This document shows positions 1 through 13,511 of a stretch of 13,511 nt of DNA, in pieces. Positions within the stretch are counted from its first letter, which is position 1, and each line of letters opens with the position of its first letter. The stretch is from Escherichia coli (GTDB lineage Bacteria > Pseudomonadota > Gammaproteobacteria > Enterobacterales > Enterobacteriaceae). The stretch lies in the NCBI RefSeq assembly GCF_003334315.1, contig NZ_QOWR01000081.1; one strand, 5' to 3'. A program made the translations under genes and the position numbers. The notes beneath the pieces are model-generated. The model saw only the letters and a program-made list of their open reading frames with translations, ran no database searches and was not told where the DNA came from.

Positions 1-76
1 CCCCGGCTGAACCCTGAACAATGCTACCGCCATACTGCGTCATGTCGCCCTGACGCGCTGCCGGTTTTCCGCTCAT
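1..76 (-). CDS. rhsA: Rhs-family protein, 5' end only (first 25 codons; gene continues beyond the window start)
   Basis: Reverse complement of 1-76 translates from ATG (76..74) as MSGKPAARQGDMTQYGGSIVQGSAG, the conserved N-terminus of E. coli Rhs core proteins. Divergent from yibF as in K-12 rhsA (symbol from synteny recollection). Confidence 0.65.
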   Translation of the reverse strand, partial: MSGKPAARQGDMTQYGGSIVQGSAG

Positions 77-304
77 CTGCTCATCCTTGTTTTATCGGGT
101 TATTTGTCTGCTTCCAGGCAAAACCCTACAGATTTATAAGAAAGCCTTAAGTGAGATATCCATCAGATAGAAACAATTAGGAAAATATTTATATCACCAT
201 GATAAATATGTGATTTATTTGGAAGTAACAAACCATCAACATTTTCTGCCCTTTTTCCCATCACCAGGCCATACTGATATTTTTCCTCGCACAAAGGACT
301 CGGC

Positions 305-913
305 ATGAAACTCGTCGGTAGCTACACCAGCCCGTTTGTACGCAAACTTTCTATTCTGTTGTTAGAAAAGGGCATAACTTTCGAATTTATTAATGAACTG
401 CCCTATAACGCGGACAACGGCGTGGCGCAATTTAACCCGTTAGGAAAAGTGCCGGTGCTGGTGACCGAAGAGGGCGAATGTTGGTTTGATTCGCCGATCA
501 TCGCTGAATATATTGAATTAATGAATGTCGCTCCGGCGATGTTGCCGCGCGATCCGCTGGAGTCGTTGCGGGTGCGCAAAATTGAGGCACTGGCGGATGG
601 CATTATGGATGCCGGGCTGGTATCGGTGCGTGAACAGGCGCGTCCAGCGGCGCAGCAGTCTGAAGATGAATTGTTACGCCAGCGGGAGAAAATCAACCGC
701 AGTCTGGATGTGCTGGAAGGATATCTGGTCGATGGCACACTCAAAACCGATACGGTCAATCTGGCGACTATCGCCATTGCCTGTGCCGTCGGATATCTCA
801 ATTTCCGCCGCGTTGCGCCAGGCTGGTGTGTCGATCGCCCACACTTAGTCAAACTGGTCGAAAACCTGTTTAGCCGCGAAAGTTTTGCTCGCACCGAACC
901 GCCAAAGGCTTGA
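305..913 (+). CDS. yibF: Glutathione S-transferase-like protein YibF
   Basis: 202-aa ORF, AAAGGA 8 nt upstream of ATG; translation ([28 protein letters not shown]...) matches GST N-terminal thioredoxin-like fold and my recollection of YibF; position upstream of selA. Confidence 0.85.
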
Positions 914-968
914 TGCGCGATATGTCCTCCTGACCCATCTCACGTTACAATCCGTGGTTATGTTAAAC

Positions 969-990
969 GCCCTTCTCCGTGTGAGAGGGC
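969..990 (+). promoter_or_regulatory. Hairpin in selA leader (8-bp stem with single bulged T/U, 5-nt loop CGTGT); candidate SECIS-like SelB-binding element or yibF terminator
   Basis: GCCC-T-TCTC / CGTGT / GAGAGGGC read directly from sequence, 21 nt upstream of the selA ATG; function inferred. Confidence 0.3.
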
Positions 991-1010
991 CTTGATCAGC
1001 CAGGTTTCCT

Positions 1011-2402
1011 ATGACAACCGAAACGCGTTCCCTCTATAGTCAACTTCCGGCTATTGATCGCTTATTGCGCGATAGCTCCTTCCTTTCTTTGCGTGATACT
1101 TATGGTCACACCCGCGTGGTGGAATTGTTGCGTCAGATGCTCGACGAAGCGCGAGAAGTGATTCGTGGCAGCCAGACGCTGCCTGCGTGGTGTGAAAACT
1201 GGGCGCAAGAAGTCGATGCCCGGTTGACGAAAGAAGCGCAGAGCGCGCTGCGTCCGGTGATCAACCTGACGGGAACCGTGCTGCATACCAACCTTGGGCG
1301 AGCTTTACAGGCGGAAGCCGCGGTGGAAGCCGTTGCGCAGGCTATGCGTTCGCCAGTGACCCTCGAGTACGATCTGGACGACGCTGGACGCGGACATCGC
1401 GATCGTGCGCTGGCGCAGTTGCTGTGCCGCATTACGGGGGCGGAAGATGCCTGTATCGTTAATAACAATGCGGCGGCGGTGTTATTGATGTTGGCGGCCA
1501 CTGCCAGCGGGAAAGAGGTGGTGGTTTCTCGCGGCGAACTGGTGGAGATTGGCGGCGCGTTTCGTATTCCCGATGTTATGCGTCAGGCAGGCTGCACCCT
1601 ACACGAAGTAGGGACCACCAACCGCACGCACGCGAATGATTATTGTCAGGCGGTGAATGAAAATACCGCACTGTTGATGAAAGTACATACCAGTAACTAC
1701 AGCATTCAGGGGTTCACCAAAGCGATAGATGAAGCGGAACTGGTGGCGCTCGGCAAAGAGCTGGATGTTCCCGTAGTGACTGATTTAGGCAGTGGCTCGC
1801 TGGTCGATCTTAGCCAGTACGGTTTGCCGAAAGAGCCAATGCCGCAGGAGTTGATTGCGGCGGGCGTCAGTCTGGTGAGTTTCTCCGGCGACAAGTTGTT
1901 AGGCGGGCCGCAGGCAGGAATTATTGTTGGTAAAAAAGAGATGATCGCCCGCCTGCAAAGCCACCCGCTGAAGCGTGCATTACGCGCGGATAAAATGACC
2001 CTCGCGGCGCTGGAAGCCACGTTGCGTCTTTATTTACACCCTGAAGCTCTGAGTGAAAAATTACCGACCCTGCGCCTGCTTACCCGCAGCGCAGAGGTCA
2101 TTCAAATCCAGGCACAACGTTTACAGGCTCCCCTTGCCGCACATTACGGCGCGGAGTTTGCGGTACAGGTTATGCCATGTCTTTCGCAGATTGGCAGTGG
2201 TTCGCTGCCGGTTGATCGCCTGCCGAGCGCGGCATTAACGTTTACACCCCATGATGGACGCGGTAGCCACCTTGAGTCATTAGCCGCCCGCTGGCGTGAA
2301 TTGCCAGTGCCGGTGATTGGTCGTATTTATGACGGACGATTGTGGCTGGATTTACGCTGCCTTGAAGATGAGCAACGGTTTTTGGAGATGTTGTTGAAAT
2401 GA
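1011..2402 (+). CDS. selA: L-seryl-tRNA(Sec) selenium transferase (selenocysteine synthase)
   Basis: 463-aa ORF, translation [22 protein letters not shown]... matches SelA as I recall it; stop overlaps selB start (ATGA). Confidence 0.93.
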
Positions 2403-4243
2403 TTATTGCGACTGCCGGACACGTTGACCACGGCAAAACAACCTTATTGCAGGCGATTACTGGCGTAAATGCTGACCGTCTGCCGGAAGAAAAAAAGCGC
2501 GGCATGACCATCGATCTCGGCTATGCCTACTGGCCGCAGCCGGATGGTCGCGTGCCTGGTTTTATCGACGTACCCGGTCATGAAAAGTTTCTTTCCAACA
2601 TGCTGGCGGGCGTTAGTGGTATCGATCACGCGCTGTTGGTGGTGGCGTGCGATGACGGCGTGATGGCACAGACCCGTGAGCATCTGGCGATTTTGCAGCT
2701 GACCGGTAACCCGATGCTGACAGTGGCGCTGACCAAAGCCGATCGCGTGGACGAAGCGCGTGTTAATGAGGTTGAACGCCAGGTAAAGGAGGTGCTGCGG
2801 GAATACGGTTTTGCTGAGGCAAAACTGTTTATCACCGCAGCAACCGAAGGTCGGGGAATTGATGCCCTGCGCGAGCATCTGCTTCAGTTGCCGGAACGCG
2901 AGCACGCCAGCCAACATAGTTTCCGCCTCGCTATTGACCGCGCATTTACCGTAAAAGGTGCCGGGCTGGTCGTCACCGGTACGGCGTTAAGCGGGGAAGT
3001 GAAGGTAGGCGATTCACTCTGGCTGACTGGTGTAAATAAACCGATGCGTGTACGTGCGCTGCATGCGCAAAACCAGCCAACAGAAACCGCCAATGCCGGG
3101 CAGCGTATCGCGCTTAACATCGCGGGTGATGCGGAAAAAGAGCAGATTAACCGTGGCGACTGGCTGCTTGCCGATGTGCCGCCAGAGCCGTTCACACGGG
3201 TGATTGTCGAGCTTCAAACCCATACACCGCTGACCCAGTGGCAGCCGCTGCATATTCACCACGCCGCCAGCCACGTTACGGGACGCGTTTCGCTGCTGGA
3301 AGATAACCTTGCCGAGCTGGTGTTCGACACGCCGCTGTGGCTGGCGGATAACGATCGCTTAGTGCTGCGCGATATCTCGGCCCGCAACACGCTGGCGGGG
3401 GCGCGTGTGGTGATGCTTAACCCGCCGCGTCGCGGTAAACGTAAGCCGGAATATCTGCAATGGCTGGCGTCTCTTGCACGGGCGCAGAGCGATGCCGATG
3501 CGTTATCTGTTCATCTGGAACGCGGCGCGGTTAACCTTGCGGATTTCGCCTGGGCGCGCCAGCTCAACGGCGAAGGGATGCGCGAATTGCTGCAACAGCC
3601 TGGCTATATTCAGGCTGGTTATAGCTTGTTGAATGCGCCGGTTGCCGCTCGCTGGCAACGGAAAATTCTCGACACATTAGCGACTTATCATGAGCAACAT
3701 CGCGATGAACCTGGGCCTGGGCGCGAACGTCTGCGACGTATGGCGTTGCCAATGGAAGATGAAGCGCTAGTACTGTTGCTGATTGAAAAGATGCGCGAAA
3801 GCGGCGACATCCTCAGTCATCACGGTTGGCTGCATCTGCCGGATCACAAAGCGGGCTTCAGCGAAGAGCAGCAGGCCATCTGGCAAAAAGCAGAGCCGCT
3901 GTTTGGTGACGAGCCGTGGTGGGTGCGTGATCTGGCAAAAGAGACGGGTACCGACGAGCAGGCAATGCGCCTGACGCTACGCCAGGCGGCGCAGCAAGGA
4001 ATAATTACCGCGATCGTCAAAGATCGTTATTACCGTAACGATCGGATTGTCGAATTTGCCAATATGATCCGCGATCTCGATCAGGAGTGTGGTTCAACCT
4101 GCGCGGCGGATTTCCGCGATCGCTTAGGCGTAGGCCGAAAGCTGGCAATTCAGATTCTGGAATATTTTGACCGCATTGGCTTTACGCGTCGTCGTGGAAA
4201 TGATCATTTATTGCGCGACGCATTATTATTTCCGGAAAAATAA
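2399..4243 (+). CDS. selB: Selenocysteine-specific translation elongation factor SelB
   Basis: 614-aa ORF with GTP-binding P-loop [11 protein letters not shown] at N-terminus, DxxG (DVPGHE) and NKxD-like (TKAD) motifs; C-terminal winged-helix extension; ends ...LLFPEK as in E. coli SelB. Confidence 0.93.
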
Positions 4244-4296
4244 GGAAATGATTAATTAATTTTTAAAATAAATTAATACAAATTTCTTATGATTTT

Positions 4297-4338
4297 AAAA
4301 AAAGCACATTGTTTAATGAATACAATGTGCTTTTTATT
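4297..4338 (+). terminator. Rho-independent terminator of selAB (A-run upstream, T-run downstream, potentially bidirectional)
   Basis: AAAAAAA-GCACATTG-(loop TTTAATGAATA)-CAATGTGC-TTTTTATT; perfect 8-bp stem at 4304-4311 / 4323-4330 followed by T-run 4331-4338. Confidence 0.6.
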
Positions 4339-4432
4339 AGATTAATTTTGATAATCAATAATAATGATCATGTTTTCGAATGAAAATCCTCAGTAAGCTG
4401 CCCACCCTTTTTTACACTTTCAGGAGTGTGTT

Positions 4433-5584
4433 ATGGCATCTTCAACTTTCTTTATTCCTTCTGTGAATGTCATCGGCGCTGATTCATTGACTGATGCAAT
4501 GAATATGATGGCAGATTATGGATTTACCCGTACCTTAATTGTCACTGACAGTATGTTAACGAAATTAGGTATGGCGGGCGATGTGCAAAAAGCACTGGAA
4601 GAACGCAATATTTTTAGCGTTATTTATGATGGCACCCAACCTAACCCCACCACGGAAAACGTCGCCGCAGGTTTGAAATTACTTAAAGAGAATAATTGCG
4701 ATAGCGTGATCTCCTTAGGCGGTGGTTCTCCACACGACTGCGCAAAAGGTATTGCGCTGGTGGCAGCCAATGGCGGCGATATTCGCGATTACGAAGGCGT
4801 TGACCGCTCTGCAAAACCGCAGCTGCCGATGATCGCCATCAATACCACGGCGGGTACGGCCTCTGAAATGACCCGTTTCTGCATCATCACTGACGAAGCG
4901 CGTCATATCAAAATGGCGATTGTTGATAAACATGTCACTCCGCTGCTTTCTGTCAATGACTCCTCTCTGATGATTGGTATGCCGAAGTCACTGACCGCCG
5001 CAACGGGTATGGATGCCTTAACGCACGCTATCGAAGCATATGTTTCTATTGCCGCCACGCCGATCACTGACGCTTGTGCACTGAAAGCCGTGACCATGAT
5101 TGCCGAAAACCTGCCGTTAGCCGTTGAAGATGGCAGTAATGCGAAAGCGCGTGAAGCAATGGCTTATGCCCAGTTCCTTGCCGGTATGGCGTTCAATAAT
5201 GCTTCTCTGGGTTATGTTCATGCGATGGCGCACCAGCTGGGCGGTTTCTACAACCTGCCACACGGTGTATGTAACGCCGTTCTGCTGCCGCATGTTCAGG
5301 TATTCAACAGCAAAGTCGCCGCTGCACGTCTGCGTGACTGTGCCGCTGCAATGGGCGTGAACGTGACAGGTAAAAACGACGCGGAAGGTGCTGAAGCCTG
5401 CATTAACGCCATCCGTGAACTGGCGAAGAAAGTGGATATCCCGGCAGGCCTACGCGACCTGAACGTGAAAGAAGAAGATTTCGCGGTTCTGGCGACTAAT
5501 GCCCTGAAAGATGCCTGTGGCTTTACTAACCCGATCCAGGCAACTCACGAAGAAATTGTGGCGATTTATCGCGCAGCGATGTAA
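4433..5584 (+). CDS. yiaY: Iron-containing (group III) alcohol dehydrogenase
   Basis: 383-aa ORF, AGGAG 7 nt upstream of ATG; translation has Fe-ADH signatures ([14 protein letters not shown]-binding glycine motif, histidine-rich metal site ...[16 protein letters not shown]...). Position between selB and aldB as in K-12. Confidence 0.9.
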
Positions 5585-5599
5585 TCATCATTTCCACAA

Positions 5600-5627
5600 C
5601 GGCTGGCAAATTGTCAGCCGCTTTTTC
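5600..5627 (+). terminator. Rho-independent terminator after yiaY
   Basis: CGGCTGGCAAATTGTCAGCCG hairpin (5600-5620) immediately followed by CTTTTTC. Confidence 0.55.
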
Positions 5628-5684
5628 AACTATCTCTGTAACCCTTGCCCGTAAATTCGTGATAGCTGTCGTAAAGCTGTTACC

Positions 5685-5707
5685 GACTGGCGAAGATTTC
5701 GCCAGTC
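5685..5707 (+). promoter_or_regulatory. Perfect 10-bp inverted repeat with 3-bp spacer (GACTGGCGAA-GAT-TTCGCCAGTC) in the aldB leader; candidate operator or 5'-UTR hairpin
   Basis: Read directly: 5685-5694 is the exact reverse complement of 5698-5707; lies 42 bp upstream of the aldB ATG; no T-run follows, so not a terminator. Confidence 0.3.
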
Positions 5708-5748
5708 ACGTCTACCCTTGTTATACCTCACACCGCAAGGAGACGATC

Positions 5749-7287
5749 ATGACCAATAATCCCCCTTCAGCACAGATTAAGCCCGGCGAGTATGGTTTCC
5801 CCCTCAAGTTAAAAGCCCGCTATGACAACTTTATTGGCGGCGAATGGGTAGCCCCTGCCGACGGCGAGTATTACCAGAATCTGACGCCGGTGACCGGGCA
5901 GCTGCTGTGCGAAGTGGCGTCTTCGGGCAAACGAGACATCGATCTGGCGCTGGATGCTGCGCACAAAGTGAAAGATAAATGGGCGCACACCTCGGTGCAG
6001 GATCGCGCGGCGATTCTGTTTAAGATTGCCGATCGAATGGAACAAAACCTTGAGCTGTTAGCGACGGCTGAAACCTGGGATAACGGCAAACCCATTCGCG
6101 AAACCAGTGCTGCCGACGTGCCGCTGGCGATTGACCATTTTCGCTATTTCGCCTCGTGTATTCGGGCGCAGGAAGGTGGGATCAGTGAAGTTGATAGCGA
6201 AACCGTGGCCTATCATTTCCATGAACCGTTAGGCGTGGTGGGGCAGATTATCCCGTGGAACTTCCCGCTGCTGATGGCGAGCTGGAAAATGGCTCCCGCG
6301 CTGGCGGCGGGCAACTGTGTGGTGCTGAAACCCGCACGTCTTACCCCGCTTTCTGTACTGCTGCTAATGGAAATTGTCGGTGATTTACTGCCGCCGGGCG
6401 TGGTGAACGTGGTCAATGGCGCAGGTGGGGTAATTGGCGAATATCTGGCGACCTCGAAACGCATCGCCAAAGTGGCGTTTACCGGCTCAACGGAAGTGGG
6501 CCAACAAATTATGCAATACGCAACGCAAAACATTATTCCGGTGACGCTGGAGTTGGGCGGTAAGTCGCCAAATATCTTCTTTGCTGATGTGATGGATGAA
6601 GAAGATGCCTTTTTCGATAAAGCGCTGGAAGGCTTTGCACTGTTTGCCTTTAACCAGGGCGAAGTTTGCACCTGTCCGAGTCGTGCTTTAGTGCAGGAAT
6701 CTATCTACGAACGCTTTATGGAACGCGCCATCCGCCGTGTCGAAAGCATTCGTAGCGGTAACCCGCTCGACAGCGTGACGCAAATGGGCGCGCAGGTTTC
6801 TCACGGGCAACTGGAAACCATCCTCAACTACATTGATATCGGTAAAAAAGAGGGCGCTGACGTGCTCACAGGCGGGCGGCGCAAGCTGCTGGAAGGTGAA
6901 CTGAAAGACGGCTACTACCTCGAACCGACGATTCTGTTTGGTCAGAACAATATGCGGGTGTTCCAGGAGGAGATTTTTGGCCCGGTGCTGGCGGTGACCA
7001 CCTTCAAAACGATGGAAGAAGCGCTGGAGCTGGCGAACGATACGCAATATGGCCTGGGCGCGGGCGTCTGGAGCCGCAACGGTAATCTGGCCTATAAGAT
7101 GGGGCGCGGCATACAGGCTGGGCGCGTGTGGACCAACTGTTATCACGCTTACCCGGCACATGCGGCGTTTGGTGGCTACAAACAATCAGGTATCGGTCGC
7201 GAAACCCACAAGATGATGCTGGAGCATTACCAGCAAACCAAGTGCCTGCTGGTGAGCTACTCGGATAAACCGTTGGGGCTGTTCTGA
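5749..7287 (+). CDS. aldB: Aldehyde dehydrogenase B (NAD(P)-dependent)
   Basis: 512-aa reading from ATG 5749 preceded by AAGGAGA (5736-5742); translation [17 protein letters not shown]... with ALDH catalytic signatures (ELGGKSP glutamate motif, catalytic Cys in GEVCTCPSR). The track ORF start at 5611 is an unsupported upstream extension that overlaps the yiaY terminator. Confidence 0.92.
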
Positions 7288-7318
7288 TATAAGAAGCTGG
7301 TCGCATTGGGTATTCATT

Positions 7319-7400
7319 GCCTGATGCGACGCTTACGCGTCTTATCATGCCTACGGGAACCTGACCGTAGGCCGGATAAGGCGTACACGCCGCATCCGGC
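7319..7400 (+). repeat. REP/BIME element (two REP palindromic units in opposite orientation) downstream of aldB
   Basis: GCCTGATGCGACGCTTACGCGTCTTATCATGCCTAC (7319-7354) and GTAGGCCGGATAAGGCGTACACGCCGCATCCGGC (7367-7400) match the enterobacterial REP consensus families as I recall them. Confidence 0.75.
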
Positions 7401-7505
7401 ATAAACAAAGCGCACGTTGTTACAATTTACGTTTTAAACCTACGTGCGCAATAACCCAGACTACGCCAACAGAAGTGCGTTTCTGGGGCGTGTTTTGTCA
7501 GGAGT

Positions 7506-7646
7506 TTAATCTCGCGTTTCGATGGTGAGCGGGCGAACCAGGCCGTAAATCACCATTGGTGATCCGAGGCCAATCAGCAATAAACGGTAGATAATTGAAG
7601 GTTTAATACGCTTAATCTGTACTGTGGATGTTTTACTGGAGTTATT
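7506..7646 (-). CDS. Hypothetical small protein (47 aa from ATG 7646..7644; 70 aa if started at 7718), one predicted transmembrane helix
   Basis: Only ORF in the AT-rich aldB-yiaW spacer; translation MNNSSKTSTVQIKRIKPSIIYRLLLIGLGSPMVIYGLVRPLTIETRD has a basic stretch followed by a about 20-aa hydrophobic segment; no clear Shine-Dalgarno; unverified. Confidence 0.15.
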   Translation of the reverse strand, partial: NNSSKTSTVQIKRIKPSIIYRLLLIGLGSPMVIYGLVRPLTIETRD

Positions 7647-7765
7647 CATTAGTTTGGCCAATAGTTCCACTATTTCAATATGATAAACCTCGTCCTGTTG
7701 AAAAACCAGACAGCACATTTAAGAAAGTATATAAAAAACAATATGTCGTTATATAAATAAGGAAA

Positions 7766-7794
7766 TTGCACTGCATCATGGCATTTCATAATAT
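7766..7794 (+). promoter_or_regulatory. Candidate sigma70 promoter for yiaWV (-35 TTGCAC, 17-bp spacer, -10 TAATAT)
   Basis: Hexamers read by eye at 7766-7771 and 7789-7794 in an AT-rich region about 40 bp upstream of the yiaW ATG; no experimental support. Confidence 0.2.
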
Positions 7795-7831
7795 GCGTTA
7801 ATTGTTCTTTTTTATATTCTTTGAGGGAAAT

Positions 7832-8155
7832 ATGTTCCTGGACTATTTTGCACTGGGAGTGCTTATTTTTGTATTTCTGGTGATCTTCTATGGGATCATT
7901 ATTTTACATGATATTCCCTACCTGATTGCCAAAAAACGTAATCATCCTCATGCCGACGCCATTCATGTTGCTGGTTGGGTGAGTCTTTTTACGTTACATG
8001 TTATCTGGCCGTTTTTGTGGATTTGGGCCACGCTTTACCGCCCGGAGCGGGGATGGGGAATGCAAAGCCATGATTCATCCGTTATGCAACTGCAACAGCG
8101 CATTGCCGGGCTGGAGAAACAGCTCGCCGACATCAAATCCTCTTCTGCCGAGTAA
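7832..8155 (+). CDS. yiaW: Small inner-membrane protein YiaW (DUF3302 family, AaeX-like partner of a membrane fusion protein)
   Basis: 107-aa reading from ATG 7832 preceded by GAGGGA; two hydrophobic helices ([40 protein letters not shown]) then a coiled C-terminal tail; the track start at 7802 lacks an RBS. Confidence 0.85.
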
Positions 8156-8160
8156 TACTT

Positions 8161-9306
8161 ATGGATTTACTGATTATTTTGACCTATGTGGCTTTTGCAT
8201 GGGCAATGTTTAAGATCTTCAAAATTCCCGTAAATAAATGGACCATTCCCACAGCGGCCCTGGGTGGAATATTTATTGTCAGCGGTCTAATTCTGTTAAT
8301 GAACTATAACCATCCGTATACCTTTAAAGCGCAAAAAGCGGTTATTTCTATTCCTGTTGTCCCACAGGTGACTGGTGTGGTGATTGAAGTGACGGATAAG
8401 AAAAATACGCTGATTAAAAAAGGTGAGGTGCTATTTCGACTGGACCCGACGCGTTATCAGGCGCGGGTGGATCGGCTGATGGCGGATATCGTTACCGCAG
8501 AACATAAACAGCGGGCGTTGGGCGCAGAGTTAGATGAGATGGCGGCGAATACTCAGCAGGCAAAGGCCACGCGGGATAAATTCGCTAAAGAGTATCAGCG
8601 TTACGCACGTGGCAGCCAGGCGAAAGTAAACCCGTTTTCAGAACGCGATATCGATGTGGCGCGGCAAAATTATCTGGCGCAGGAAGCCTCCGTGAAGTCA
8701 TCGGCGGCGGAACAAAAACAGATCCAGAGCCAGCTGGATAGCCTGGTGTTGGGTGAACATTCTCAAATCGCCAGCCTGAAAGCACAGCTCGCGGAAGCAA
8801 AATATAACCTTGAGCAGACGATAGTGCGTGCGCCGAGCGATGGTTATGTGACCCAGGTACTGATTCGTCCGGGTACCTATGCCGCGTCGCTGCCGCTACG
8901 TCCGGTGATGGTGTTTATACCCGATCAGAAACGACAAATCGTGGCGCAGTTCCGTCAGAACTCCTTGCTGCGACTGGCTCCTGGCGACGATGCGGAAGTG
9001 GTGTTTAATGCTCTGCCAGGTAAGGTATTCAGCGGTAAGCTGGCAGCCATTAGTCCAGCCGTTCCCGGCGGAGCTTATCAGTCGACCGGCACCTTACAGA
9101 CGTTAAACACAGCGCCGGGTTCAGATGGCGTTATCGCGACCATTGAACTGGATGAGCACACTGATTTGAGCGCTTTACCAGACGGTATTTACGCCCAGGT
9201 GGCGGTTTACTCTGATCATTTCAGCCATGTCTCGGTGATGCGCAAAGTGCTATTACGCATGACCAGCTGGGTGCATTACCCACACCTGCGGCAACCGTGG
9301 CGATAG
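8161..9306 (+). CDS. yiaV: HlyD-family membrane fusion protein YiaV; last about 9 codons are junction-derived, not native
   Basis: 381-aa ORF starting 5 nt after the yiaW stop; N-terminal TM helix, biotinyl/lipoyl-like beta-barrel and long coiled-coil segments typical of membrane fusion proteins; from about 9280 the same nucleotides encode the WcaK N-terminal motif in another frame. Confidence 0.85.
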
Positions 9307-9361
9307 CGCCATTCTGCGCGGGCTTTTAGATGCCATCAACACGCTCTCGCCTGAGGCTGAA

Positions 9362-10537
9362 GTGGATGTGATGAGCCGTTATCCGGTGAGTTCTTCCTGG
9401 TTGCTCAATCGCCCGGTGATGGGCGATCCGCTCTATTTGCAGATGAAAGCGCATAACAATGCGCCGGGCATGGTCGGGCGAGTGAAGAAAGTATTGCGTC
9501 GTCGCTATCAGCATCAGGTGCTGCTGTCACGCGTCACGGACAGCGGCAAGCTGCGCAATATCGCCATTGCTCAGGGCTTTACCGATTTTGTGCGTCTGTT
9601 GTCCGATTATGACGCGATTATCCAGGTGGGCGGATCGTTCTTCGTCGACCTGTATGGTGTGACGCAGTTTGAGCACGCGCTGTGCACCTTTATGGCGAAA
9701 AAACCGATTTATATGGTCGGCCATAGTGTCGGGCCGTTCCAGGCACCGGCGTTTAACCATATGGCAAACTATGTCTTTGGTCACTGCGACGCGCTGTTCC
9801 TGCGCGAGTCGGTCAGCCTTGATTTGATGAAACGCAGCGACATTGACACCTCGAAAGTGGAGAAGGGTGTCGATACCGCCTGGTTGGTCGATCACCACGA
9901 TGACAGTTTTGACGCGAGCTACGCCGTCCAGCACTGGCTGAATGTGGCGCAGCAGCAGAAAACCGTGGCGATTACCCTGCGTGAACTGGCGCCGTTTGAT
10001 AAACGCCTGGGCACCACGCAGGAAGCCTACGAAAAAGCGTTTGCGGGCGTGGTAAATCGGATCATCGCCAGCGGCTGGCAGGTGATGGCGCTCTCTACCT
10101 GTACGGGCATCGACAGCTATAACAAAGACGATCGCATGGTGGCGCTTAACCTGCGTAAACATATTCAGGACCCATCGCGCTACCACGTGGTGATGGATGA
10201 GCTTAACGATCTCGAAATGGGCAAACTGCTGGGCGCCTGTGACCTGACGGTCGGTACGCGTCTGCATTCAGCAATTATCTCCATGAACTTCGGAACACCG
10301 GCGATTGCGATTAACTACGAACACAAATCAGCGGGCATTATGCAGCAACTGGGTATGCCGGAAATGGCAGTCGATATTCGCCATCTACTGAATGGCGACC
10401 TGGAAGCGATGGCGGCAGACACCTTGGGTCAACTCTCAACGCTTGTGCCGCGCCTCAATGACGCGGTAGCGCGTGAGCGCGCGGCGGGGCTGGCGATGGT
10501 GGAATCGGTATTAACGCGCATCGGGGAGGGGAAATGA
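9362..10537 (+). CDS. wcaK: Colanic acid biosynthesis pyruvyl transferase WcaK, 5'-truncated (homology begins at 9281 with no start codon; first in-frame starts are GTG 9362 and ATG 9371)
   Basis: Frame-2 translation from 9281 reads [20 protein letters not shown]..., the conserved N-terminal motif of polysaccharide pyruvyl transferases (PF04230-type); the frame is closed by TGA at 9260-9262; stop overlaps the wcaL start (ATGA). Confidence 0.8.
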   Translation: MDVMSRYPVSSSWLLNRPVMGDPLYLQMKAHNNAPGMVGRVKKVLRRRYQHQVLLSRVTDSGKLRNIAIAQGFTDFVRLLSDYDAIIQVGGSFFVDLYGVTQFEHALCTFMAKKPIYMVGHSVGPFQAPAFNHMANYVFGHCDALFLRESVSLDLMKRSDIDTSKVEKGVDTAWLVDHHDDSFDASYAVQHWLNVAQQQKTVAITLRELAPFDKRLGTTQEAYEKAFAGVVNRIIASGWQVMALSTCTGIDSYNKDDRMVALNLRKHIQDPSRYHVVMDELNDLEMGKLLGACDLTVGTRLHSAIISMNFGTPAIAINYEHKSAGIMQQLGMPEMAVDIRHLLNGDLEAMAADTLGQLSTLVPRLNDAVARERAAGLAMVESVLTRIGEGK

Positions 10538-11760
10538 AGGTTGGTTTCTTCTTGCTGAAATTCCCGCTGTCGTCTGAAACCTTTGTGCTCAACCAGATTG
10601 TGGCCTTTATCGAAATGGGCCACGAGGTCGAAATTATCGCCCTGCAAAAGGGCGATATGACCAACACCCACGCGGCGTTCACGCAATATGACCTGGCAGC
10701 GAAAACACGCTGGTTACAGGATGAACCAGTGAGTACGGGCGCAAAGTTTCGTCATCGCGCAGTCAGCACGTTGCGCGGGTTACATCGCCCGGCAACGTGG
10801 CAGGCGCTCAATATGAAGCGTTACGGCCATGAAGCGCGCAACCTGATCCTCTCGGCCATTTGCGGCAATAACGCCCAGCCATTTAGCGCCGACGTATTTA
10901 TTGCTCACTTCGGCCCGGCGGGGGTAACTGCGGCGAAACTGCGCGAACTGGGCGTGATCCGCGGCAAAATCGCGACCGTCTTTCACGGCATTGATATCTC
11001 CAGCCGCGATGTGCTGAGCCACTACACGCCGGAGTATCAACAGCTTTTCCGTCGTGGCGATCTGATGCTGCCGATCAGTAATTTGTGGGCGAAACGATTG
11101 CAGGGAATGGGCTGCCCGGCGGCGAAAATTGCCGTTTCGCGAATGGGCGTCAACATGGACCGTTTTGCCCTGCGCCCCACCAAAGCGCCGGGTGAGACGC
11201 TGCAAATAATCTCAGTGGCCCGCCTGACGGAGAAAAAAGGTCTGCATGTAGCGATTGAAGCCTGCCGTCAGTTGAAAGAGCGCGGTGTGGCGTTTCACTA
11301 TCGCATTCTCGGCATCGGCCCGTGGGAACGCCGCCTGCGCACATTGATCGAACAGTATCAACTGGAAGGGTACGTGGAGATGCCGGGCTTTAAGCCCAGC
11401 CATGAGGTAAAAGCGATGCTCGATGAGGCGGATGTCTTTCTGCTGCCGTCGATTACCGGCGCAGATGGCGATATGGAAGGCATTCCTGTGGCACTGATGG
11501 AAGCGATGGCAGTGGGCATTCCGGTGCTTTCGACCGAGCATAGCGGTATTCCGGAACTGATAGACGCCAACGCCTCCGGCTGGCTGGTGGCGGAGAACGA
11601 CGCTCCGGCGCTGGCGGGCAAACTCAGCGAACTGCGCCATCTTGATGAGCCGACGCTGCGCCCGGTGCTACAACGCGCCCGCCAAAAAGTTGAAACCGAG
11701 TTCAATCAGCAGGTGATTAACCGCCAGCTCGCGAGCCTGCTGCAAACCCTTTGCTATTGA
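10534..11760 (+). CDS. wcaL: Colanic acid biosynthesis glycosyltransferase WcaL (GT4 family)
   Basis: 408-aa ORF; N-terminus MKVGFFLLKFPLSSETFVLNQ... and C-terminal GT-B motif region (EGIPVALMEAMAVGIPVLSTEHSGIPELI) with the E-X7-E signature typical of GT4 enzymes. Confidence 0.88.
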   Translation: MKVGFFLLKFPLSSETFVLNQIVAFIEMGHEVEIIALQKGDMTNTHAAFTQYDLAAKTRWLQDEPVSTGAKFRHRAVSTLRGLHRPATWQALNMKRYGHEARNLILSAICGNNAQPFSADVFIAHFGPAGVTAAKLRELGVIRGKIATVFHGIDISSRDVLSHYTPEYQQLFRRGDLMLPISNLWAKRLQGMGCPAAKIAVSRMGVNMDRFALRPTKAPGETLQIISVARLTEKKGLHVAIEACRQLKERGVAFHYRILGIGPWERRLRTLIEQYQLEGYVEMPGFKPSHEVKAMLDEADVFLLPSITGADGDMEGIPVALMEAMAVGIPVLSTEHSGIPELIDANASGWLVAENDAPALAGKLSELRHLDEPTLRPVLQRARQKVETEFNQQVINRQLASLLQTLCY

Positions 11761-11766
11761 GGTTGC

Positions 11767-13158
11767 ATGGATAAAAAATTTTCCCGACGTCGCTTCCTGT
11801 CGGCAGGCGCTACGCTTGCCGCCATCCCACTGCTACACAGCCCCGCTGTACGCGCGCTGGGGCGTAATGATGCCGTTGATATCCGCAACTATCTGGTCGG
11901 TAATGACTGGATCCGTGCATTTCGTCAGGCGTTTGACGATGCCGATATTATCGACGTCCCCAAAGGCGTGATTTGCGACAATATTAATACCGGCATCATC
12001 ATGCCACCGGGTAAAACGCTGCAGGTAAACGGCAGCCTGAAAGGCAATGGTCGTGGGCGTTTTGCGTTGCAGGATGGGTGTAAAGTGGTGGGGGAGGGGA
12101 GTCTCAATAATATTACTCTCGACGTGCGCGGATCTGACTGCACCATCGAAGGTCTGGCGATGAGCGGCTTTGGCCCGGTGGCGCAAATCTACATCGGCGG
12201 CAAACAAAAAAGGACGATGCGCAATCTCACCATCACGCGGATTAATATCAGCCAGGCTAACTACGGTATTTTACGCCAGGGTTTCCATAATCAACTCGAC
12301 GGCGTAAAAATCACCCACAGTAAATTTAGCTACCTGCAGGGTGATGCCATTGAATGGAACGTCGCGATTAACGACAAGAATATCCTCATTTCTGACCATG
12401 TGATTGACCACATTGATTGCACCAATGGCAAGACCAACTGGGGCATCGGTATTGGGCTTGCGGGCAGCACCTACGATAACGACTACCCGGAGCACCAGGC
12501 GGTGAAAAACTTTGTCGTCGCCAATATCACCGGCAGCCACTGCCGACAGTTGGTTCACGTCGAAAACGGTAAACACTTTATTATCCGTAATATTAAGGCA
12601 CGAAATATCACCCCGGAATACAGTAAGAAAGCCGGAATTGATAACGCTACGGTAGCAATATATGGATGTGATAATTTCGTTATCGATGGTGTGGATATGG
12701 TTAATAGCGCGGGCATGCTAATTGGCTATGGTGTTATCAAAGGGAAATATCTGTCGATACCGCAGAATTTCAGGATAAATAATGTGCGGATGGATAATCG
12801 ACAATTAACGCTAAAGCTGCGGGGAATACAGATTTCATCGGGCAATGCACCTTCGTTTGTTGCGCTTACCAACCTCGATCTGAACCATGCGTCGCTGGAG
12901 ATCCACAACAAGCCGCAACACATATTTATGCGTAATATCAAGGTGATACAGCCTGCGGCGCGCGGGCCCGCACTACAGCTCCACTTCGACTTACGCAAGG
13001 ATGTTCGCGGGAAGTTTATGGCCAAACAGGAGACGCTGCTCTCGATGTCAAATATTCATGCGGTCAATGAAAACGGCCAGCGGTCTGTGGATATTGACCG
13101 TATTGATCAGCACGTTGTCAATGTCGATGCGCTGAATTTTACCCTGCCTAAACGCTGA
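11767..13158 (+). CDS. wcaM: Colanic acid biosynthesis protein WcaM (Tat-signal, predicted right-handed beta-helix)
   Basis: 463-aa ORF, GAGG 9 nt upstream of ATG; twin-arginine signal [18 protein letters not shown]...A-VRA-LG; repeated N-I-T / V-x-N motifs consistent with a parallel beta-helix; last gene after wcaL as in the colanic acid cluster. Confidence 0.85.
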
Positions 13159-13360
13159 ATTTTTAGCCGAACCCACCTCTTCAGACGCATTCTCGGATTG
13201 TATCCAGAGATTTAGCGGTATTTACCCGATACTATGAGAAAACATAGTGGATCAAACAACGTTAATAGCTATAATTCATCAACCGTATATAGGTGGACAC
13301 GATAATGGGTGATGATGCCAACTTACTGATTTAGTGTATGATGGTGTTTTTGAGGTGCTC

Positions 13361-13420
13361 CAGTGGCTTCTGTTTCTATCAGCTGTCCCTCCTGTTCAGC
13401 TACTGACGGGGTGGTGCGTA
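13361..13420 (+). promoter_or_regulatory. JUMPstart-like sequence with degenerate ops-like core, downstream of wcaM (upstream of the next polysaccharide locus)
   Basis: Begins CAGTGGCT (13361-13368) and ends GGGGTGGTGCGT (13408-13419), resembling JUMPstart ends (CAGTGGCTCTGG...GGGGCGGTAGCGT) as recalled, but the 8-bp ops GGCGGTAG is not intact. Confidence 0.2.
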
Positions 13421-13511
13421 ACGGCAAAAGCACCGCCGGACATCAGCGCTATCTCTGCTCTCACTGCCGTAAAACATGGCAACTGCAGTTCACTTACACC
13501 GCTTCTCAACC

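Follow-up and report, generated by a model that had tools for sequence, protein, structure and literature searches.

The yiaV-wcaK junction of an Escherichia coli contig as the probable left edge of an O-antigen block moved by a single ISAs1-family element

The 13,511-nt contig QOWR01000081.1 from the GenBank Escherichia coli assembly GCA_003334315.1, analysed here in its entirety and referred to as the window, joins the 3' end of the chromosomal gene yiaV directly to wcaK, a gene of the colanic-acid operon that has here lost its 5' end. This raises the question as to whether the join is real and, if so, how wcaK, with wcaL and wcaM behind it, came to lie within yiaV. Our analysis points to the junction being the left edge of an O-antigen block that was carried into yiaV by one copy of an insertion sequence (IS) of the ISAs1 family. 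We give this reading a probability of about 0.8 and place more confidence in the structure than in the idea that the transposase used a surrogate end.

The junction and the foreign wcaKLM allele

The interrupted yiaV (8161-9306, plus strand) keeps 373 native codons, up to 9279, and continues into a foreign tail of eight codons, PHLRQPWR, that is closed by a stop at 9304-9306. This tail is wcaK DNA translated in the wrong frame and the fused YiaV, of 381 residues compared with 378 for the native protein, has lost five C-terminal residues and gained eight. In the +1 frame from 9281 the 5'-truncated wcaK, a foreign allele comprising codons 9-426 (9281-10537, plus strand), begins at residue 9 with HTCGNRGD. 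The WcaK equivalog model TIGR04006 matched with 864 bits against a cut-off of 727 and was covered at profile positions 9-426 of 426, and because the alignment starts at profile position 9 the gene is without exactly its first eight residues. A sequence-only reading of the same DNA had given both frames correctly, including the run of yiaV from RMTSWVHY into the tail and its stop, the TGA at 9260-9262 upstream in the WcaK frame and the lack of an ATG before 9371, and had recorded that wzxC is absent from the window. It had further proposed that wcaK lacks its ribosome-binding site, its promoter and about ten codons; the loss of the start region with its ribosome-binding site and promoter is confirmed and the deficit is corrected to eight residues.

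Alignment shows the join to be blunt. K-12 yiaV reads ...CATTAC(C)TTTAT, native wcaK reads ...GGCAA(C)CACACC and the window reads ...CATTAC(C)CACACC, such that the inspection for microhomology that had been proposed for this breakpoint yields a single shared base, the C at 9280. A BLAST comparison with 5,426 complete E. coli genomes placed yiaV homology at 8900-9280 and wcaK homology at 9280-9700, with the C at 9280 common to both. None of these genomes spans the yiaV-wcaK junction, and the synteny break is upheld as genuine. No IS sequence lies at or near 9281, which leaves the locus without the second IS of a composite transposon, and the earlier statement that no IS end or scar is visible holds at the junction itself.

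The junction recurs in material from several sources. The exact 381-residue fused YiaV is found under four NCBI accessions, all from E. coli (OWD56102.1, RCQ22484.1, HAH2848947.1 and HAI0838535.1). Logan contigs from SRR10357290 and SRR3824135 carry the junction at 100% identity to the window over 10,079 and 2,809 nt respectively, and an ENA metagenome contig (L009) contains both this junction and that of galF with IS1, described below, with one mismatch in 4,144 nt. The accession and run numbers gave no hit in the literature.

Judged by its sequence, the wcaKLM of the window is a foreign allele and not the resident locus at 45 min. Window 9281-13307 is 75.1% identical to K-12 wcaKLM, and the amino acid identity to K-12 is 84.9% for WcaK, 81.3% for WcaL (wcaL intact, 10534-11760, plus strand, and annotated as wcaL in matching genomes) and 71.5% for WcaM (wcaM intact, 11767-13158, plus strand, with a match to Pfam WcaM); both of these intact genes are likewise foreign alleles. 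At 92% identity or above, 14 of the 5,426 complete genomes match the wca segment, the best of them at 99.2%. These genomes hold the allele natively and in one of them, PK5, wzxC lies upstream and an O28ac/O42 cluster downstream. PK5 is just 98.39% identical on the yiaV side and, among the listed genomes with about 100% identity on that side, none is one of the 14 carriers. An identical copy of the WcaM protein of the window lies beside galF and O-antigen genes in many other contigs, and a reconstructed full-length WcaK of this allele gave no exact match on record.

The species-representative genome nearest to the wca allele is that of Pseudocitrobacter vendiensis, at 91-92%. Strain CPO20170097T (NZ_CALSBS010000005.1) alone among species-representative genomes contains an exact 40-mer of the wcaM-galF spacer; across wcaL-wcaM-galF this strain and the window allele are 91-92% identical, compared with 75% for K-12. 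Similarity of this kind suggests that the wca part of the block originated outside Escherichia.

The far end of the insert and its ISAs1 element

To the right of wcaM lie the wcaM-galF spacer and the galF ATG (13305-13307), together occupying 13159-13307 on the plus strand, and then the first 204 nt of an IS1 with its left inverted repeat GGTGATGATGCC... and the start of insA (13308-13511, plus strand; Pfam InsA match), within which the contig ends. This IS1 is about 98% identical to IS1A-family copies, which are present on thousands of plasmids. A Logan contig from ERR271230 (L042) opens with the right end of IS1 followed by CGATAATGGTT... of galF (read further, CGATAATGGTTAATTTG...). The left copy of the target duplication, CGATAATG, stands at window 13300-13307 directly before the left end of IS1, and the window and L042 thus represent the two sides of a single insertion with an 8-bp duplication. 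IS1 is a simple secondary insertion into the transposed unit, directly after the galF start codon, where it separates galF from the sequence upstream of it.

Over 11,354 nt L042 matches L046 at 100% identity, L046 being part of a 44.8-kb contig of GCA_012531215.1. Beyond IS1 stand galF, O-antigen genes counted as 12, and the IS, and the order is galF, wzx, GT2, a gene for a Stealth-family protein, an EpsG-type wzy, GT4, gmd, fcl, gmm, manC, GT2, manB and ISAs1, and no serogroup-specific NCBIfam model matched the O-antigen cluster. Directly after manB, L046 contains a complete ISAs1-family element of 1,323 bp with intact terminal inverted repeats of about 39 nt, the transposase of which matches NF033564 with 398 bits against a cut-off of 70 as well as Pfam DDE_Tnp_1_assoc and DDE_Tnp_1. 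The DDE transposase, terminal inverted repeats and fixed target duplication of the ISAs1 family were all found. Beyond the element L046 reads ...TTTTCCCTG and then GTGCATTACCTTTATCTCGATCATTAA, such that the outer terminus of the IS (...CCCTG; in a longer read ...CATGAATTTTCCCTG) abuts the 3' end of yiaV, which is followed by yiaU, yiaT, sgbE, sgbU, sgbH, lyxK, yiaO, yiaN and yiaM.

The 10 bp that precede the junction in the window, GTGCATTACC at 9271-9280, recur in direct orientation immediately past the outer terminus of ISAs1 on the other side of the insert, at L046 12828-12837, the two ends being read from different assemblies. Strain 2018-01-1CC, in which yiaV-yiaU is intact, provides the empty site, with the left flank corresponding to 10001-19280 and the right flank to 19271-27865 (99.99% and 99.98% identity respectively). 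The two flanks overlap there by exactly 10 bp, GTGCATTACC, and because they do so on an uninterrupted site no chromosomal DNA is missing. The insert adds up to 4,027 nt, IS1 and 13,958 nt, which is about 18.75 kb with IS1, not seen whole, taken at the 768 nt of a canonical copy, and about 17.98 kb before IS1 arrived.

The same ISAs1 element is scattered across E. coli genomes at 99.9-100% identity. Its simple insertions were accompanied by duplications of exactly 10 bp in every case (7/7), and for this reason the 10-bp repeat around the yiaV insert can be attributed to the ISAs1 transposase as its footprint. The insert has the features of a unit moved by a single IS, namely a complete IS at one end, an IS-less other end, a duplication of the length typical of the IS and an empty site. 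At the left terminus (9281-9283, plus strand), from which native wcaK runs onward, the unit begins 5'-CAC at wcaK codon 9, while the inner end of the IS begins CACGG; compared by eye, this putative surrogate end and the true IS end share only the terminal CAC and are identical at 5 of 25 positions.

Other arrangements of the element were also seen. A tandem ISAs1 pair (L065) is bounded by a 10-bp repeat, as judged by eye across copies. At about 1.563-1.571 Mb of CP058175.1 (L056 and L057) two ISAs1 copies flank three genes encoding 946, 552 and 140 residues, at least two of them glycosyltransferase-like, and this block is bounded by the 10-bp duplication GGTGCGATGC (by eye across loci); it looks like a composite transposon with sugar-transferase genes built from the same ISAs1.

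Proposed transposition as one unit and its alternatives

As the right end is the outer terminus of the IS and the left end is IS-less wcaK beginning CAC, transposition as one unit is the most economical reading. The block of wca', galF and O-antigen genes, foreign to this chromosome, would belong to a pool of near-identical copies on plasmids and at other sites. The ISAs1 transposase would have brought the outer end of the IS together with a surrogate end in wcaK (CAC...) that lies about 16.7 kb past the inner end, and the IS with its adjacent DNA would have transposed in a single step into the 3' end of yiaV with duplication of GTGCATTACC. IS1 would have landed later in the transposed unit, at the galF start codon, with its own 8-bp duplication. 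It is from the two termini that we infer the use of a surrogate end by the ISAs1 transposase.

A number of points weigh against this reading. The structure was pieced together from different assemblies, its left half being the window (GCA_003334315.1) and its right half coming from ERR271230 and GCA_012531215.1, rather than from both junctions read in one isolate. The union of the two halves rests on the two complementary duplications (8 bp for IS1 and 10 bp for yiaV) and on matching flanks, and the window and the L042 and L046 assemblies appear to belong to one lineage. The surrogate end has just CAC (5/25) in common with the IS end, which means that end recognition would be weakly specified. 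A second complete example of the unit was not found, all the plasmid copies being trimmed by IS26 or IS1, and the protein predicted for the far junction of a sister event in bcsG (451 residues with the tail RENS) is not on record. A search of the accessible literature returned no paper linking the ISAs1 family with one-ended or unit transposition, and we are aware of no report in which an element of this family mobilises DNA in a one-ended manner.

In mechanism the nearest analogue is the ISEcp1-type unit, for example with blaCTX-M. In such units too a single complete IS stands at one end and the distal end is plain neighbouring sequence that hardly resembles the inverted repeat; a duplication of IS-typical length encloses the entire unit, and copies occur whose distal end points differ. 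However ISEcp1 belongs to the IS1380 family, in contrast to ISAs1 here, its duplication is 5 bp rather than 10 bp and its cargo consists of resistance genes rather than about 16.7 kb of polysaccharide genes; in addition the transposase of the yiaV unit reads towards the cargo from the far end, and the mechanism is here deduced from footprints only. Elements of the ISAs1 family, H-repeat and IS1358, lie beside the O-antigen clusters of Salmonella group D2 and Vibrio cholerae O139 and are suspected of having moved them. Those cases are based on association or IS-mediated recombination, whereas the yiaV block shows both termini, a duplication and an empty site. Plasmid-borne O-antigen clusters such as that of Shigella sonnei form I on pINV and that of the Salmonella O:54 plasmid resemble the block in being complete, in lying outside the galF-gnd locus and in spreading horizontally, and copies of the present cassette are also on plasmids; unlike them, the yiaV block is chromosomal in the window and carries part of the colanic-acid operon.

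Biologically the nearest precedent is O89m, an O-antigen locus that in E. coli of the ST10 complex lies between nfsB and ybdK. It likewise has a wcaM remnant at a non-canonical site in K-12-like E. coli, is IS-associated and occurs in near-identical form in Citrobacter (Harris et al. 2018, PMC6128206). It contains wzm/wzt of the ABC-transporter type, IS on both sides and a truncated gnd, whereas the yiaV block has wzx/wzy, a longer 'wcaK-wcaM remnant, an IS at just one of its ends and a target duplication that can be demonstrated.

Among the alternatives we consider it improbable that plasmid-derived DNA was integrated without a transposase, either by homology-facilitated illegitimate recombination, in which the right end would be anchored in a resident IS and the left end joined blunt to yiaV, or through an IS1-mediated cointegrate of plasmid and chromosome followed by deletion of the plasmid backbone. 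An overlap of 1 nt at the left join, the plasmid carriage of the cassette elsewhere and the IS1 to the right of wcaM in the window would all fit such an event. It does not, however, predict a precise 10-bp target repeat ending at the terminus of an IS that has a 10-bp footprint; moreover no chromosomal DNA was lost and IS1 is a simple internal insertion. Our earlier working models, IS1-anchored recombination and a cointegrate with deletion, were superseded by the simple nature of the IS1 insertion and by the 10-bp duplication.

About equally improbable is a composite transposon with two ISAs1 copies that entered yiaV and later lost its left copy. The same element does form IS-flanked glycosyltransferase units with 10-bp duplications, as in CP058175.1, but the left copy would have had to be excised exactly, unguided by any repeat, in such a way that the duplication stayed flush to wcaK codon 9. 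Recombination between direct IS copies would delete the cargo and not one IS, and no IS remnant is present at 9281.

Very improbable indeed is a rearrangement of the resident loci, in which yiaV at 80 min and wcaK at 45 min would be brought together by a junction of the deletion type spanning about 1.6 Mb, perhaps in a chromosome that had divided into two replicons. The sequence-only reading had taken the join for a deletion-type junction of more than 1 Mb while stating that a simple deletion of that size would not be viable, with which we agree; essential genes, for example the ribosomal protein operons, lie within this interval in K-12 and count against a deletion. The K-12 orientations of both loci do fit a deletion junction and a second lineage has a bcsG-wcaM junction in the same orientation. 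Nevertheless the rest of yiaV stands immediately beyond the insert, with yiaU, yiaT and the sgb/yia genes behind it, the allele of wca is foreign and identical to plasmid copies and the site is duplicated over 10 bp; the right-hand junction refutes the deletion, provided that the two halves are taken as one structure.

Least credible is an assembly chimera or a laboratory construct, both of which had been raised by the same reading: although no complete genome crosses the junction and the join is a clean one in mid-gene, an identical junction is present in at least four assemblies of GenBank, in two Logan read sets, for which another assembler was used, and in one metagenome, which excludes a chimera, and a flank with 85 mismatches to MG1655 (99.07% identity by BLAST), recurrence in metagenome and surveillance assemblies and the natural IS footprints of the structure make engineering unlikely.

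Other copies of the block and what the insertion implies

E. coli and Citrobacter harbour copies of the block that are 99.9-100% identical to the window segment, on plasmids as well as at other sites, and in all identical copies the segment is followed by galF and the same O-antigen cluster (wzx to manB). Two plasmids of Citrobacter portucalensis have the identical segment beside IS26, and one Citrobacter chromosome has it twice; the plasmids that bear the cassette include pSTW0522-27-2. Versions bounded by IS26 were observed in L026, L027 and L048-L051 (AP022195.1, AP022201.1), including two sites in one chromosome of 4.98 Mb. Among the complete E. coli genomes the O-antigen cluster occurs only on plasmid p3575-NDM-5, trimmed by IS26 at both ends, and manB-ISAs1 is intact on no PLSDB plasmid. 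The cluster is one that co-travels with resistance plasmids.

The left boundary of the block varies between copies. In at least six E. coli drafts (L011, L012 and L014-L019) it starts at window-equivalent 10669, in wcaL, and is joined to the interior of an istA that was assigned to the IS21 type by eye from its translation. Downstream in these drafts an IS1 after wzy leads to the backbone of plasmids of 220-440 kb (L032 8760-13628), a backbone common to Citrobacter, Enterobacter, Klebsiella and E. coli at 99.8% identity. In GCA_002462895.1 (NKEV01000059.1; L030 9095-9106 and also L044) the block starts at 12408/9 in wcaM and is joined without an IS to a truncated bcsG, 54 kb from yiaV on the K-12 map and in the same orientation, with an IS1 after wzy. 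This bcsG-wcaM junction is present in no complete genome and the far junction expected from the transposition model was not found; for this assembly the model predicts a 10-bp pair, AGCGCGCCGC, in bcsG. We also considered a single ancestral insertion beyond bcsG, from which the junctions would have arisen by separate deletions, and rejected it, as the right junction shows no deletion; the essential glyQS between bcsG and yiaV on the K-12 map also counts against it.

Both of these sister IS-less left junctions can be read as starting CAC (CACGCGG at 10669 and CACATTG at 12409), which hints at repeated events with different surrogate ends. A further left boundary, at window-equivalent 9687 in L006 and L010 (ERR15973124), is preceded by 27 nt, TAAATACCCCACACTTTTTTATGCTCT, at the contig start; it begins CCTTT, not CAC, and probably arose by a different route. 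A wider proposal, which we regard as tentative and on balance doubtful, is that ISAs1 elements are general one-ended mobilisers of surface-polysaccharide loci that use CA or CAC pseudo-ends many kb away, with varied left end points, and so seed plasmids that then carry the serotype through E. coli, Citrobacter and other genera. The end points that could be cited for it, each as tentatively, are wcaK codon 9 joined to yiaV, wcaL joined to a plasmid istA and wcaM joined to bcsG. If this proposal were true, transposition and not homologous replacement would be a regular route of serotype switching, and the association of H-repeat and IS1358 with O-antigen clusters would have a mechanism.

The insertion leaves the strain with an O-antigen cluster away from the usual chromosomal locus. 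Homologous replacement of the galF-gnd region is the usual explanation of O-antigen switching. In the present case an entire O-antigen cluster, accompanied by a partial colanic-acid operon, appears to have jumped as one unit into an unrelated gene, and the same block circulates across genera on resistance plasmids including an NDM-5 plasmid. The yiaV insertion represents an unusually clean footprint of the transposition of an O-antigen cluster en bloc. Should the mechanism hold, the suspected role of ISAs1 and H-repeat elements would gain a concrete footprint consisting of an IS end, a surrogate end and a 10-bp duplication. Ectopic O-antigen loci could then mislead in-silico serotyping and quality control based on synteny, and what appears in a draft contig to be a megabase "deletion junction" can be the edge of a mobile insert.

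Within the insert, 'wcaK is probably a pseudogene, to judge from its reading frame, since it has no canonical start and a start at the first GTG (9362, ahead of the first ATG at 9371) or at that ATG would remove the conserved N-terminal motif. On the GenBank contig wcaK was called with 420 residues from an ATT at 9275, overlapping the end of the fused yiaV open reading frame, and on Logan contigs with 391 residues from the GTG at 9362. No terminator-like site was found between yiaV and 'wcaK, which makes it plausible that 'wcaKLM is transcribed by read-through from yiaWV, presumably as its sole source of transcription.

A number of minor observations concern the junction and the IS1. A 21-nt inverted repeat spans the junction, with 9125-9145 in yiaV and 9292-9312 in wcaK complementary at 17 of 21 positions. 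None of 300 shuffles equalled it, yet real E. coli sequence did so in about 0.3-1% of the comparisons; chance probably accounts for it and we see no mechanistic role for it. Two Logan contigs with the junction (L002 and L003, their ends covering 10096-10126) each stop at exactly window 10126, whereas the GenBank and metagenome contigs continue through this position. A second wcaK of K-12 type was rejected as the cause, there being no 31-mer in common with K-12 wca, and PK5 shows no single-nucleotide polymorphism at 10127; the stop may reflect a second partial copy or heterogeneity of the sample. The left inverted repeat of the IS1 in the window, GGTGATGATGCC, is an unusual variant, and the same IS1 end variant is present in a different strain (L045, ERR4221154) in the opposite orientation and 67 bp upstream, at window-equivalent 13241.

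The left flank of the insert is ordinary chromosome. Many complete E. coli chromosomes match window 1-9280 essentially without difference, at a reported 100%, and strain 2018-01-1CC matches it at 99.99%. Carriage of the yibF-yiaV half on a plasmid, as an R-prime, was rejected, the only matches being mislabelled chromosomal records. The genes yibF, selA, selB, yiaY, aldB and yiaW (305-8155, plus strand) are native and undisturbed, and the window opens with the first 25 codons of rhsA (1-76, minus strand, from the gene call), the contig ending there at the repeated Rhs element; rhsA adjoins yibF in K-12 and in strain 2018-01-1CC as well, and this is its native neighbourhood.

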